Of a stretch of DNA of 64,000 bases, positions 39,340-43,373 are shown piece after piece. The position numbers and the translations under genes were made by a program. The stretch spans positions 192,001 through 256,000 of the forward strand of contig CAVTRN010000002.1 of the NCBI GenBank assembly GCA_963737155.1. Reading direction: 5' to 3'. The notes below the pieces were generated by a model. That model made no database searches, was not told the origin of the DNA, and saw only the letters and a list, made by a program, of their open reading frames with translations. How positions within the stretch are numbered: the first letter of the stretch is position 1; each line of letters opens with the position of its first letter. Source of the DNA: Nitrospirota bacterium. Its GTDB lineage: Bacteria > Nitrospirota > UBA9217.

Positions 39340-39560
39340 TAACTATGACGGCAGCCGAACAGTGCTGCTGCCGGTTAACGTCAGGGATTCCCGCCCTGAT
39401 TCGCCCAAGTCCCGTTGTTTGCTGATCGGGATTGCTTCTGGCGCCTTTTCAGCAAGACTGCTGCTGGCAGGTGGCCCGGAGAATTGCGCTGTCGACGGGA
39501 TGATGGCTTCTTCTGCAATTCAGCGCAGCCTGGGGAGTCCTGTAAGGACCGTCGTTGGTA
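39340..39560 (-). ncRNA. putative TnpB omega/reRNA at the IS607 right end
   Basis: Overlaps a low-complexity tnpB tail; hairpins such as TCAGGG/CCCTGA; boundaries approximate. Confidence 0.45.
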
Positions 39561-40331
39561 GAGACTGTGATGATTTCCACAACCTCCCCGAGTCTTCATC
39601 TTGCTCCAAAACTTCCAGATGTGCTCCTCTCGATTCCTTGCAGGTAGAGGGGAGGCGGTTCTGCTTGGTATGGGAGACTCGGAATATCCTTGAACTCTTC
39701 TCGCGATCGCAAGCGCCGCTGCTTCATGCGGCGAGATGCCATGAAAAGACATATAATTGTTTCTGCCGATAACGGATGTGTAAGCAGGATTCACGGAGAG
39801 CACACCGGCGCCTGCCTTAAATGCTCTGCGGTCAAGCATGTTTAAAAAGGTGGAATAGGCGAACCCGGACAGCATCCGCGCATACGTTACTCCCTGTTCC
39901 TTAAGAGATGCTTTCTTCTTTTCGAAGTCAAGAGTTTCATGAGCGACGGGTTTCCCGGTTTTAATTGACCGGTCGATAATGCCGACGCAGATATCACCGT
40001 AAGTTGCCTCGGTCTGTTCCGTGGTTCTGTCTTTTATACATGCAGCATACGTTGTGTGCCAGACAAGATTGACGAACCGGTCAGTCTCGGAAACAGCAAT
40101 CTCTTTTTCGTTTGCATCTACGCCAATATATCCGATTTCTTGCGGTTTCCCGGTAATTGTTTCTCTTGGGGGGATATCAACCGATGAATACAGATACCAA
40201 CCCTTCTCGCCACGGACAAACCGGTGGGTGATTGCCTGGCTGCGCAGGAGTGCCTGCTCAATATATTCCTGCCCGTAAGGATATGTTACGGTAGGCACCA
40301 TGATGTGTTTACCGTATTTTTTGGCAAGATA
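39381..40331 (-). pseudogene. tnpB: tnpB 3' part (RuvC region), separated from its 5' part by the IS110
   Basis: YIGVDAN, VAHETLDF, SVNPAYTSVIG, HEAAALAIARR; rejoins in frame with 42080-42817 as RVPN|YLAKK (562 aa total). Confidence 0.85.
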
Positions 40332-40437
40332 GACATAATGGTTGACAGTTGAAAAAGTGACCTGCCCCTTGTCACCGTGGGTTATACTTGGATGCAATGG
40401 GTGTCCAAATACAGAGCCACAAACAAGGAGGCAGGTC

Positions 40438-41550
40438 ATGAAAGATTCTATCACAATCGTAGGACTCGATTCAGCAAAAAACTCCATAGCTGTAGCAACG
40501 GCCGAAATTGGCGGCAGCCAAGAGGTTCGCTACTACGGCAAAATCGGCGGCGACATGGCGTCATTGGACAAAATGGTCAGAAAGCTTGAAAGCAAAGGCT
40601 CAGAACTGCACTTCGTCTATGAAGCCGGGCCGTGTGGTTACGAAATATACCGCCATCTAACCAAGAGAGGTTACAAATGCACGGTTGTGGCACCATCGCT
40701 GATTCCCAAGAAAAGCGGCGATCGCGTCAAGACCGATCGTCGTGACGCGCAAAGTCTAGCCAGGCTGTATCGGGCCGGAGAACTGACTCCTGTTTACGTG
40801 CCCCAAGAGGATGATGAAGCCATGAGAGACCTGACCCGATGCCGCGAAGACGCAGTCAAGGCCCATCGCACTGCCCGGCAGAGGTTAGGCGCGATGCTCC
40901 TGCGGCATGGACACCGTTACTCTGGAGAAACCGCATGGACCCAAGCCCACATGCGCTGGTTGTCTGATATCAAGATGCCACACCCTGCACAGCAGATCAC
41001 GCTGCAAGAGTACATCAACACGGTGAAGGAATGCGCAGAGCGTGTGGCCCGGCTTACGGAGCAGATTCAAACGCTTATGCCCACATGCCGAACGGCCCCT
41101 GTTGCACTCGCAATCCAATCGTTACGCGGCATCGCGGATGTAACTGCCGCGACCACCATGGCCGAGATCGGAGACTTGGGACGTTTTGAAAATCCCAAGC
41201 AGCTCATGGGATACCTTGGATTGGTCCCTTCCGAATACTCCAGCGGCGACAGCACCAGACGGGGTGCTATCACCAAAACCGGAAACACCCACGTCAGGCG
41301 CGCATTGATTGAAGCGGCCCAAGCCTACAGTCTGCCGGCCCGAGTGAGCCGGGTAATCCTCAAGCGGCAGGAGGGGCTGCCGAAAAATATCTGTGATATC
41401 TCCTGGAAAGCCCAGGTGCGTCTCTGCGGACGGTTCCGTAAACTCACGGCCAAAGGGAAGCCCAGGAACAAGGTGGTAACCGCCATTGCCAGGGAACTAT
41501 GCGGCTTCATATGGGCAATTGCCCGGGAAGTGAATCTCCAGAGCGCATAA
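40438..41550 (+). CDS. IS110 DEDD transposase / bridge recombinase
   Basis: AAGGAGG RBS; VGLD, YEAGP, KTDRRDA, GLVPSEYSSG, AIAREL. Confidence 0.95.
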   Translation: MKDSITIVGLDSAKNSIAVATAEIGGSQEVRYYGKIGGDMASLDKMVRKLESKGSELHFVYEAGPCGYEIYRHLTKRGYKCTVVAPSLIPKKSGDRVKTDRRDAQSLARLYRAGELTPVYVPQEDDEAMRDLTRCREDAVKAHRTARQRLGAMLLRHGHRYSGETAWTQAHMRWLSDIKMPHPAQQITLQEYINTVKECAERVARLTEQIQTLMPTCRTAPVALAIQSLRGIADVTAATTMAEIGDLGRFENPKQLMGYLGLVPSEYSSGDSTRRGAITKTGNTHVRRALIEAAQAYSLPARVSRVILKRQEGLPKNICDISWKAQVRLCGRFRKLTAKGKPRNKVVTAIARELCGFIWAIAREVNLQSA

Positions 41551-41811
41551 GAAGATTAACCCAAGAACAAGGCGTCACACAAAACTTGGGGGGGTATCTT
41601 GGCATGGACTGTCTCTGGAAAATCAATCCTGGGGCATTTATGAAAGAAAAAATCAACCCTCAAAGGTAAAAACCGCTCAAATCGTCAACATAGGCGGGAG
41701 CATCGAGCTTTCCAAAGAACAGGATCAAAAACTTGAAGTCACCCGGTAACAATGGCGACTCAAACGACTGAGGCAAAACAAAGGAGGACGCAAGCAAACA
41801 ATAAACAACCT

Positions 41812-42001
41812 CCAAGGCATAAGCGGGGACGCGGCCACGTTTACGGAGAATCCTCGTCCAAACTATGGAATAAGGCAATGCCGAACTTCCGTTAATAGAG
41901 CGAGGCAGCTCCGCGGCGAAGAAAGGTCTTGCGGTCAAACCCGCGAATATCAGAGTGATCAAACGTCGCACAAGTCGGCCCCGTCCCTCCTTACGCCTTG
42001 G
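41812..42001 (+). ncRNA. bridge RNA / seekRNA of the IS110 element
   Basis: Nested stems enclose two internal loops carrying target guides CCAAACT and ATAG and donor guides GTCT and ATATCAG. Confidence 0.85.
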
Positions 42002-42079
42002 AACATATTGAAACAATGAACCCTTTGAAAAAAAGGGGCAGGAGACTATTTTCCCTATTGACAACTGTCAACCATATCA

Positions 42080-42817
42080 GTTTGGGACCCGTATCCTGAG
42101 CGACCCGTCGATGCCAAGCGTGCAGGTCTGGTTGCCGGCCGTTTCATCCTTCGATCCCAGACAAAACGACGAAGAGCTTCGGGCAGCCTTCCAATCAGAC
42201 AGCCAGTTATCATGGGATTTATAGCCATTTTCAGAAAGGTTGAACTGCTTGTCGAAAAGTTTCTTTGTCCCAAAGCAAATCCTGATTCGGCCTTTGTCCA
42301 AATCGTATTTCAGCTTTTCCAGTTTCTGCACCGATGAATGGAGCTTCCGTTTTTTGTTATGGACCGCAAAACGGAGAGACTTCACGCTGGTCGTTTTCTC
42401 ATATTCGGACAATTCCGTGTCTTTGCGTATGTCAATGATACTGTTCTCTCTGGTTTTAATCCATTTTCTCGCAGATTTTATTTTGCGCTCGAGCTTTTCA
42501 ATCCGTAGTTTTAATACCTCAACCGCGGAGCTGATATTGCCGTCAAGATCGTAGCGGATAGCGTTAAACTGCCGGGCGGTGATACCATACCTGACAAGAT
42601 ACTCATTTTTGAATGAAATGGGTTTGTTGCCGGAACGAACGCTGTCTTTAAAGAGAGAGCGTTTGATGTGCCCGTATGAGTCGCCGATATCGTCAAGAAC
42701 ATGATAAAGAGACTTCTTTGTGTCCAGGTAAGACATGTCAACCAGCAAAGTTTGAGCGGTAAAAGAAAGTGCTTCACTTTTGCCGCTCTTGGCCTTGTTA
42801 TCCTTATTACTTGCCAT
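42080..42817 (-). pseudogene. tnpB: tnpB 5' part
   Basis: YGITARQFNAI...RICFGTKKLF...LGSKDETAGNQTC; the stop at 42077 is created by the IS110 end. Confidence 0.85.
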
Positions 42818-43373
42818 TTTCCATGGCCTCCAGAGCTTTTTTTGCTTTATTGGCCGCTGACCGGCGTCCGTAGAGCCTTGCGCAAAACGATGTCAATACT
42901 TCAATCATGTCCTGCACCAGATCGTCCTTACGTTCGGTCTGGTCTACAATAATAAGTTGACGACCTTGAGCTCGAAGTGCCGATTCTACATACTCAGATC
43001 CAAACCGCATAAGCCGGTCACGATGCAAGGCGACAATAATACTGACGTTGGAGTCGGCAAGCAGCTTCATGAGTTTTGGCCTGTGCCCATTAAGACCAGA
43101 TCCAACCTCAGACACCGCTTTTGAAACTGACAACCCTTTGGAAGCGGCATATACGGAAAGCCGCCCGAGCTGCCCGTCCAGGTCTTTCTTTTGGTCATGA
43201 CTGGATACCCGGGCATAAATAGCAACAGAACCTTGGGCAGTTTTCTGCTCTTTTATAATGATGGTTCCGGTAGGCATCTGCTCAGCCTCAACCGGCAGCT
43301 TGCCAGCCTTCCACCATTTCCATGCCGCTTGATAGGTTATACCTTGTTGCTTTGCCCATACGCTTAGCTTCAT
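42807..43373 (-). CDS. tnpA: IS607 serine recombinase transposase
   Basis: N-terminal HTH MKLSVWAKQQG, IYARVSS, DRLMRFG, SFCARLYGRR. Confidence 0.95.
   Translation of the reverse strand: MKLSVWAKQQGITYQAAWKWWKAGKLPVEAEQMPTGTIIIKEQKTAQGSVAIYARVSSHDQKKDLDGQLGRLSVYAASKGLSVSKAVSEVGSGLNGHRPKLMKLLADSNVSIIVALHRDRLMRFGSEYVESALRAQGRQLIIVDQTERKDDLVQDMIEVLTSFCARLYGRRSAANKAKKALEAMENGK

Follow-up and report, generated by a model that had tools for sequence, protein, structure and literature searches.

Bridge and seek RNAs, known since 2024, make recombinases of the IS110 family programmable without double-strand breaks, and to our knowledge work so far has been mostly on IS621 and a few elements of the IS1111 group. 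Here we describe what is very probably a further RNA of this kind, the bridge RNA or long seek RNA (seekRNA) of an IS1111-group insertion sequence (IS), in a 64,000-nucleotide stretch of the genome of a Nitrospirota bacterium (assembly GCA_963737155.1, contig CAVTRN010000002.1, positions 192,001 to 256,000 of the forward strand). We call this whole stretch the window and count positions within it. The predicted RNA occupies positions 41812-42001, 3' of the transposase gene (tnp). A first-pass annotation, made from the letters alone, had read the same positions as a bridge RNA whose guides match both an interrupted tnpB gene and the junction of the element's own ends.

According to the main texts of the two principal papers, IS1111 elements carry subterminal inverted repeats of 7-17 bp (PMC11208160), a long non-coding region 3' of tnp and the motif GL-P----S(t)G in the C-terminal domain of the transposase (PMC11187229). 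Their seekRNAs match the top strand first and the bottom strand further 3', the reverse of the order in IS110-type elements such as ISEc21 and IS621, and such RNAs have already been predicted in most IS1111 elements (PMC11187229, PMC11208160). Every defining feature of these RNAs that is open to testing at the level of sequence is found at the locus described here.

A predicted RNA fold downstream of the transposase gene

The predicted RNA and its stems are placed as follows.

41812-42001, plus strand: putative bridge or long seek RNA with outer stem, target arm and donor arm (from fold, homologues and covariation)
41812-23 / 41990-42001, plus strand: outer stem
41852-56 / 41901-05, plus strand: loop-1 stem CCTCG/CGAGG
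41867-70 / 41887-90, plus strand: loop-1 stem GGAA/TTCC
41913-18 / 41964-69, plus strand: loop-2 stem GCGGCG/CGTCGC
41931-34 / 41941-44, plus strand: loop-2 stem GCGG/CCGC

Folding of 41812-42001 with RNAfold gives a minimum free energy of -80.9 kcal/mol, against -55.8 +/- 4.1 kcal/mol for 200 dinucleotide shuffles, none of which is as stable (z -6.16). The predicted architecture is three-way: the outer stem bears two arms, each with one internal loop. This reproduces the architecture proposed in the first-pass annotation, and the stems and the motifs CCAAACTAT (41858-41866), ATAG (41895-41898), GTCT (41926-41929) and ATATCAG (41947-41953) all lie where it had placed them.

Relatives were collected by a scan of one genome per species, which yielded 79 loci with transposases 51-92% identical to that of the window, mostly in metagenome-assembled genomes of Nitrospirota and Desulfobacterota-like bacteria. 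With the window RNA as query, nhmmer matched 68 of the 79 loci; every match is on the transposase strand, and most begin 70-80 nt after the stop codon. It gave no RNA match in the other 11 loci, several of which are truncated matches or lie near a contig edge, judging by their lengths and ranges. Among these 11, locus L089 has an RNA that was recognised by its pattern.

Fifty distinct RNAs were aligned (alignment A1). RNAalifold predicts 42 pairs on this alignment, 27 of them with a compensatory change. When the centroid structure of the window RNA is mapped onto A1, 84.8% of the cells are paired, compared with 74.9% after shuffling and 36-43% when the partners are slid by 1-3 columns. Changes on both sides are seen at 39 of the 55 pairs of the window structure, and none of 500 shuffles matches any of the five measures. 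The RNAalifold table holds approximately 93 G-U cells against approximately 27 A-C cells, an excess that favours the plus strand as the RNA. The long non-coding end of the element thus appears to hold a structured RNA, as in described bridge RNA and seekRNA elements.

Insertion junctions and the two loops

Judged on its sequence, 40333-42078 is an intact, recently active element of the IS1111 group of the IS110 family. Its parts are listed below.

40331-40332, plus strand: left copy of the AG core (CT on the minus strand), from the junction reading and the single AG at the empty site in 11 paralogues
40333-42078, plus strand: body of the IS1111-group insertion sequence, 1746 bp, with an AG core on either side
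40333-40351, plus strand: left end, ACATA (5 nt) followed by the 14-bp subterminal inverted repeat ATGGTTGACAGTTG (40338-40351)
40438-41550, plus strand: transposase gene, 370 amino acids, IS110-family DEDD enzyme (Pfam PF01548 and PF02371, NCBIfam NF033542)
42058-42078, plus strand: right end, TTGACA (42058-63), the 14-bp subterminal repeat CAACTGTCAACCAT (42062-75) and ATC (42076-78)
42079-42080, plus strand: right copy of the AG core, from the junction reading, the copies, the paralogues and public DNA contigs

DEDD transposases of this family combine an N-terminal RuvC-like domain with PF02371 at the C terminus. The transposase of the window matches PF01548 at 61.6 bits and PF02371 at 83.8 bits, and scores 273.9 bits (cut-off 140) against the NCBIfam model NF033542, 'IS110 family RNA-guided transposase'. 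Its translation contains GLVPSEYSSG, which fits the IS1111 motif. The subterminal inverted repeats are perfect over 14 bp (40338-40351 / 42062-42075), within the range of the group, and are offset by 5 nt plus the core at the left end (7 bp, AG + ACATA) and by 3 nt plus the core at the right. Inverted repeats were detected in relatives as well, most of which keep the left end ACATA-ATGG. From the stop codon (41550) to the right end (42078) there are 528 non-coding nt, compared with 105 nt before the ATG, which corresponds to the long downstream region of IS1111 elements.

The left junction reads ..gcaagat-AG-ACATAATGG and the right junction CCATATC-AG-tttgggac. The empty site ggcaagatAGtttgggacc (gat-AG-tttggg) is present in all 11 uninterrupted tnpB paralogues of the window genome; this confirms the target that had been reconstructed in the first pass, and the donor junction given there is likewise correct. 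The empty site has a single AG, the insertion amounts to 1746 bp plus a second AG, and the interrupted tnpB reading frame runs on through the empty site. DNA contigs of two public sequencing runs link 40330 to 42079, omitting 1748 bases with a 2-base ambiguity, although they may originate from a paralogue. The window genome (G000; two contigs, C1 and C2, 4.84 Mb in total) contains six copies of the element with 0-5 differences each, none of them within the RNA (element positions 1482-1671). All six are flanked, in transposase orientation, by ..AT-AG ... AG-TTT.., that is, the insertions are site-specific, in one orientation and without a true target duplication, as in IS1111 elements. The expectation that other copies would sit in CCAAA-CT-AT-like sites is borne out for AAA-CT-AT (6/6 copies; ATT in 4/6), whereas the CC is matched at the window copy only.

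The first loop contains two strands that match the target.

41857-41866, plus strand: target loop 5' strand (U)CCAAACUA(U), pairing with the transposase-sense strand T-AG-TTTGG (core and right flank)
41894-41898, plus strand: target loop 3' strand AAUAG, identical to the left flank AAT and core AG, pairing with the opposite strand

The two strands are thus predicted to pair with opposite strands of the target and to overlap at the core, as expected of a target-binding loop. The 5' strand is complementary and the 3' strand identical to the transposase-sense strand, which is the IS1111-type order of guides. This reversed order explains why the first-pass annotation read the DNA on the minus strand even though the RNA is on the plus strand.

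We compared the loop strands with the flanking host DNA in relatives, reading at each locus nine bases 3' of the CUCG stem for the 5' strand, those 5' of the closing stem for the 3' strand, and both junctions beside the conserved ends. The set comprised 72 distinct insertions in 48 guide lineages, 38 of which entered each test. We corrected the left-junction picks of L064 and L073 from the lists of candidate junctions and excluded those of L083 and L066 as unreliable. For L047 (3' guide) and L076 (5' guide) the sequence was taken afresh from A1, and L052 and L058 contributed no 3' guide, since three extra bases obscure its register. The agreement by position (r, right flank; l, left flank) was as follows.

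Reverse complement of 5' strand against core: base 1, 62/62; base 2, 58/62
5' strand against right flank: r1, 58/61; r2, 59/61; r3, 59/61; r4, 50/61; r5, 35/60; r6, 6/60
3' strand against core: 64/64 and 63/64
3' strand against left flank: l1, 63/64; l2, 50/61; l3, 40/61; l4, 23/61

The 5' strand scored 166.3 matches to r1-r6, compared with 67.9 +/- 7.2 when guides were shuffled among lineages, and the 3' strand 114.6 matches to l1-l5, compared with 71.6 +/- 5.5. None of 5000 permutations was as high for either strand, so the covariation of guides with targets that the first pass had named as a check is observed. A single pair of elements within the window genome illustrates it. A full-length, single-copy relative at C1:1719226-1720771 (L007/L009), with 71% amino-acid identity, has the guide CCUACU and the flank AG-TAGG where the window element has CAAACU and AG-TTTG; the 3' guide of this relative has one mismatch to its own left flank.

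The second loop contains two strands that match the element's own ends.

41926-41929, plus strand: donor loop 5' strand GUCU, able to pair with AG-AC (core and first two left-end bases)
41947-41954, plus strand: donor loop 3' strand AUAUCAGA, which repeats ATATC of the right end, the core AG and left-end base 1

In the close family the donor loop is consistent with the ends, and covariation is not possible because both are invariant: AUAUCAG is found in 50/50 of the aligned RNAs, and the right end is CATATC wherever an end was readable. We therefore turn to a more distant set of 12 plasmid loci, with relatives 44-58% identical and including ISSfr2, ISSso6 and ISEc45 family annotations. An RNA homologue was found with nhmmer and the A1 profile in 12/12 of these loci, the three weakest having E values of 0.0003-0.0015. 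Donor loops were compared by eye, ignoring the rows of L028, L055 and L060, in which the inverted-repeat pick was spurious. Compared in this way, the right-end triplet that separates repeat and core agrees perfectly with the RNA triplet before AG in five of six classes, and at 17 of 18 positions.

Right end ATC, RNA AUC: window family
Right end GAG, RNA GAG: L099, L104, L107
Right end CAG, RNA CAG: L106
Right end CGG, RNA CGG: L108
Right end AAG, RNA AAG: L089, L103
Right end GAG, RNA CAG (2/3 positions): L097, L098, L100, L105

The 5' strand, GUCU in the window and GUCA in most relatives, pairs with the second core base and with left-end bases 1-2. Where left-end positions 1-3 differ, this strand often differs to match, again by eye.

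L068: left end TCA, RNA 5' strand GAC
L076: left end ATAA, RNA 5' strand UUAU
L089: left end ATG, RNA 5' strand CAU
L108: left end ATGG, RNA 5' strand CCAU
ACC group: left end ACC, RNA 5' strand GGU

The second loop can thus pair with both sides of the end-to-end junction, on counts made by eye, and we consider it likely to be the donor-binding loop. The proposal that GTCT acts as a guide gains support from the family comparison; on its own the motif is too short to carry meaning. Taken together, the covarying structure, a first loop that follows the flanks across 72 insertions and a second loop that follows the ends uphold the first-pass reading of 41812-42001, a bridge RNA with separate loops for target and donor.

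The proposed function and its alternatives

In the mechanism that we propose, an RNA of about 190 nt from the tnp strand, 3' of the transposase gene, would fold into an outer stem with two looped arms. The 5' strand of loop 1, (CC)AAACUA, would pair with the transposase-sense strand of the target over T, the core AG and the right flank TTTG(G), and the 3' strand, AAUAG, would pair with the opposite strand over the left flank AAT and the core. Together, the two strands would select a site of about 9 bp, AAT-AG-TTTG. The strands of loop 2, AUAUCAGA and GUCU, would recognise the junction of the excised circle, ..CCATATC-AG-ACATA..., and the RNA-bound transposase would exchange strands at the shared AG (CT) dinucleotide, inserting the circle without a real duplication. 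By analogy with characterised systems, we infer that the RNA is made, is bound by the transposase and directs recombination. As for how it is transcribed, the literature suggests co-transcription with the transposase from a circle-junction promoter, as has been proposed for IS1111 elements (PMC11187229). To call the system a programmable recombinase, as the first-pass annotation did, would be an extrapolation along the same lines.

Several observations weigh against this reading or narrow it. RNA reads came from one library, a peat metatranscriptome, as two short contigs from relatives only (41146-41366 and 41932-41971), for which DNA carry-over is possible; the element itself was in no public RNA run examined, which shows neither expression nor its absence. 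An Rfam scan of 40000-42400 gave no match near the gathering score, and Rfam 15 may hold no model of IS1111 bridge RNAs. On the plus strand, a promoter scan gave no promoter-like site 5' of the RNA. In the window genome the guide is used only in part: l3 is A in 4/6 copies, r4 is G in 2/6 and r5 is G in 1/6. Eleven tnpB sites identical to the occupied one stand empty. The donor 5' strand is short, and in most relatives it is GUCA, which offers no partner to the first core base. Base 1 of the left end is mismatched in L063 (left end CCA) and in L106, and a GUAA group has no pairing to the core. Finally, in ISEc11 a short seekRNA of 82 nt, comprising the target-recognition regions, was enough for transposition, and the main text of that paper leaves the role of the long form open (PMC11187229), which calls for caution about the donor loop.

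The Rfam scan also returned matches that were rejected as noise: Twister-sister (20 bits, inside the tnp gene), c4-a1b1, RybB and UCA1 (over the RNA; 13 bits, E 5.9).

The element does not target tnpB as such: only one copy out of six lies in this gene, and the eleven identical sites in its paralogues carry no insertion. On comparison of the copies, the effective target of the element is a short word, roughly AAT-AG-TTT(G). The genome contains 192 occurrences of AATAGTTT and 38 of AATAGTTTG, both strands together. The claim that the guides match a tnpB target accordingly stands as a match of bases at the site and falls as a statement about specificity for tnpB.

We regard it as unlikely that only the first arm guides, as in a short seekRNA, and that the second arm serves as a scaffold or in processing, its resemblance to the ends going unused. 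The donor would then be recognised by the transposase through the subterminal inverted repeats and target-derived flanks. This would fit ISEc11, in which the short seekRNA not only sufficed but was the more efficient, and circle formation needed target-derived flanks around the donor (PMC11187229). It would also fit the invariance of loop and ends in the close family and a donor 5' strand match of just 3-4 nt with exceptions. It leaves unexplained, however, that among distant relatives five of six right-end classes carry the matching triplet before AG in the RNA, and that the donor 5' strand follows left-end positions 1-3 in L068, L076, L089, L108 and the ACC group; moreover, Durrant et al. 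predict donor-binding nucleotides in IS1111 bridge RNAs (PMC11208160).

The two remaining alternatives deny the RNA any guiding role. The region could act as DNA, with internal transposase-binding sites that copy the ends, or could be a stability or terminator structure in the 3' untranslated region of an mRNA. The loop sequences exist as DNA too, the element itself was in none of the public RNA runs examined, and the scan showed no obvious promoter. Yet the stems are kept by compensatory changes with many G-U pairs, which would be A-C on the other strand, and the loop strands change together with the host DNA beside the element, different in every insertion lineage, as would not be expected of a DNA-binding site or a terminator. 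A terminator would also be expected to be followed by a T-run, and none follows the structure; the terminator-like matches of a scan were no better than shuffles. We consider this explanation very improbable. Least credible of all is a chance agreement of short words between loops and junctions. The matches within the window are indeed short (4 to 9 nt), and GTCT is expected by chance. The agreement goes beyond chance by virtue of the covariation in relatives rather than of the window alone: the permutation result for each strand refutes chance for loop 1, the 8-nt AUAUCAGA spells the right end together with the core, and the target core motif is common to six copies. A bridge RNA or long seekRNA thus remains by far the most probable explanation of 41812-42001.

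Surroundings, core variation and comparison with known systems

Further features of the locus are given below.

39381-40330, minus strand: C-terminal part of the interrupted IS607-type tnpB, the target gene (NF040570 guided_TnpB, 44.8 bits, below the cut-off of 100)
41551-41811, plus strand: spacer between the stop codon and the RNA, of which about 251 nt (41552-41802) are a lineage-specific insert
42021-42037, plus strand: small hairpin CCCTTTGAAAAAAAGGG between the RNA and the right end, aligned in genomic relatives and conserved
42081-42817, minus strand: N-terminal part of the interrupted tnpB (open reading frame)
42807-43373, minus strand: IS607 tnpA upstream of tnpB (NF033518 IS607 transposase, 198.1 bits)

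Pfam gave no match for either half of tnpB, and NCBIfam only the sub-threshold TnpB match for the C-terminal half. Eleven further uninterrupted IS607-type elements (tnpA + tnpB) in the genome are 93-98% identical around the site and offer the same potential target, none of them occupied. They lie at C2:1206786, 544296, 2185760, 2785531, 600486, 2593582, 2608150, 2323672 and 1398009, and at C1:1753646 and 487414.

The small hairpin was marked by the terminator scan only as a minus-strand terminator-like site. Across the circle junction, TTGACA (42058-63) and CATAAT (40334-39) would stand 18 nt apart and form a putative junction promoter, recognised by eye and of the kind described for ISEc11. 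No circle-junction contig was found among the contigs of the public runs searched.

The first-pass annotation had left 260 nt of the non-coding region unexplained. Most of this stretch looks like a dispensable, lineage-specific insert of about 251 nt. The relative in the same genome has 52 nt in its place, and nearly all other relatives lack it; it is present only in the 91%-identical L018 lineage, at 76% identity, far below that of the RNA or the gene. The spacer has no outstanding Rfam match (RybB on the minus strand, E 9.6, is noise) and no promoter-like site on the plus strand. Its stretches 36-100 and 155-213 recur elsewhere in the genome at 78-80% identity (C2:1916625-1916689, C2:1954848-1954912; C2:10593, 313412, 495772; C1:178135), one recurrence lying directly 3' of a distant IS110-family gene fragment (C2:1916924-1917292).

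Some relatives depart from the CU core of the 5' guide. With a CC core in the guide, the right junction is GG in 10/10 cases (GG group: L027-L038, L054, L066); with a UU core, it is AA in eight cases and AG in four (AA group: L062-L068, L078-L091). AG is retained in these relatives both at the left junction and in the 3' strand, apart from L031, whose left junction is GG, and L066, which is unreadable. Donor and target cores thus seem not to need to be identical, each junction keeping the core of one partner. The right flanks of L029, L031-L033, L036-L038 and L066 belong to a palindromic repeat resembling repetitive extragenic palindromic (REP) sequences (ATTCCGGC..GCCGGAAT), which recalls the REP targeting of IS621 and ISPpu9. 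A search for other copies of the flank, as empty sites of the GG group, found only membership in the palindromic repeat, and the target core of this group is one that we infer.

Our combined proposal is more tentative than its parts: that the second arm in IS1111 elements is a donor loop co-evolving with both ends, and that non-identical donor and target cores work naturally. We would put it at somewhat less than an even chance. If it is true, each junction takes its core from one partner, and this would constrain the order or the completeness of IS1111-type strand exchange.

The element offers a complete and legible parts list, in which the transposase is intact, the RNA is the same in all six copies, and both the empty site, confirmed in 11 paralogues, and the donor junction are defined; this makes it a reasonable candidate for testing at the bench. 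About 48 naturally retargeted relatives define the loop positions that count, namely the core, 4-5 nt to its right and 3 nt to its left, and the data set should be useful for the question of what the second arm does in IS1111 long seekRNAs.

The likenesses and differences that follow are taken from the main texts of the papers cited. The window RNA resembles the seekRNAs of ISEc11, ISKpn4, ISPa11 and ISPst6 in lying 3' of tnp on the same strand, and those of IS1111 elements in the order of the guides and in the overlap of the two matches at the insertion point; the elements also share a left end of 7 bp before the repeat, the GL-P----SG motif and natural retargeting (PMC11187229). The window RNA is longer, at about 190 nt versus 145-170 nt for the published long seekRNAs, and its transposase has 370 amino acids versus the 330-350 reported for the family (PMC11187229). 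Unlike the published IS1111 seekRNA elements, the window lineage has the extra 251-nt spacer. Its RNA has a readable second loop that matches both ends, whereas the main text of the seekRNA paper leaves the role of the second arm open (PMC11187229). Relatives on enterobacterial plasmids (ISSso6 and ISEc45 family annotations) are approximately 44-49% identical to the window transposase; ISEc11 itself lies outside this comparison.

With the IS621 bridge RNA the window RNA shares two loops, one for the target and one for the donor, pairing with opposite strands and overlap at a CT (AG) core (PMC11208160, PMC11208158), and the two elements share a DEDD enzyme with PF01548 and PF02371 (PMC11208160). 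The RNA of IS621 lies in the left end, upstream of the recombinase, whereas that of the window lies in the right end, and the order of the guides relative to the transposase strand is reversed (PMC11208160). The window element also differs from IS621 in its long (14 bp) subterminal repeats and in shorter target guides, about 4-5 nt and 3 nt beyond the core.

The closest named element by annotation is the ISSfr2 family of Rhizobiaceae, with 56.6% amino-acid identity and the same layout. Its RNA is homologous to that of the window (nhmmer E 5e-25), and its target loop fits its own flanks. Its ends differ (..CAT-GAG-AG and AG-ACTAA), and its donor loop, UAUCAGAG, has one mismatch to the right end.

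ISPpu9 of Pseudomonas putida, with its RNA Ssr9, is likewise an IS110-family element with a small-RNA gene 3' of the transposase, and its genome carries further solo copies of that gene; unlike the window element it targets REP sequences, and the two are likened here by description only (PMC12288879). The window genome contains three degraded relics, at C1:1293465-1293613, C1:252854-252958 and C2:266566-266659, one a deleted element with a partial RNA and two consisting of the donor arm and right end only. These recall the solo ssr9 copies reported for ISPpu9 (PMC12288879).

The donor-arm covariation and the variation of the core (CU, CC, UU) appear to go slightly beyond the main texts of these papers, whose supplements may already list the family, and we do not claim them as unpublished. 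Set beside IS621, ISEc11 and their relatives, the window RNA is a clear further example of a known system rather than a new kind of system.

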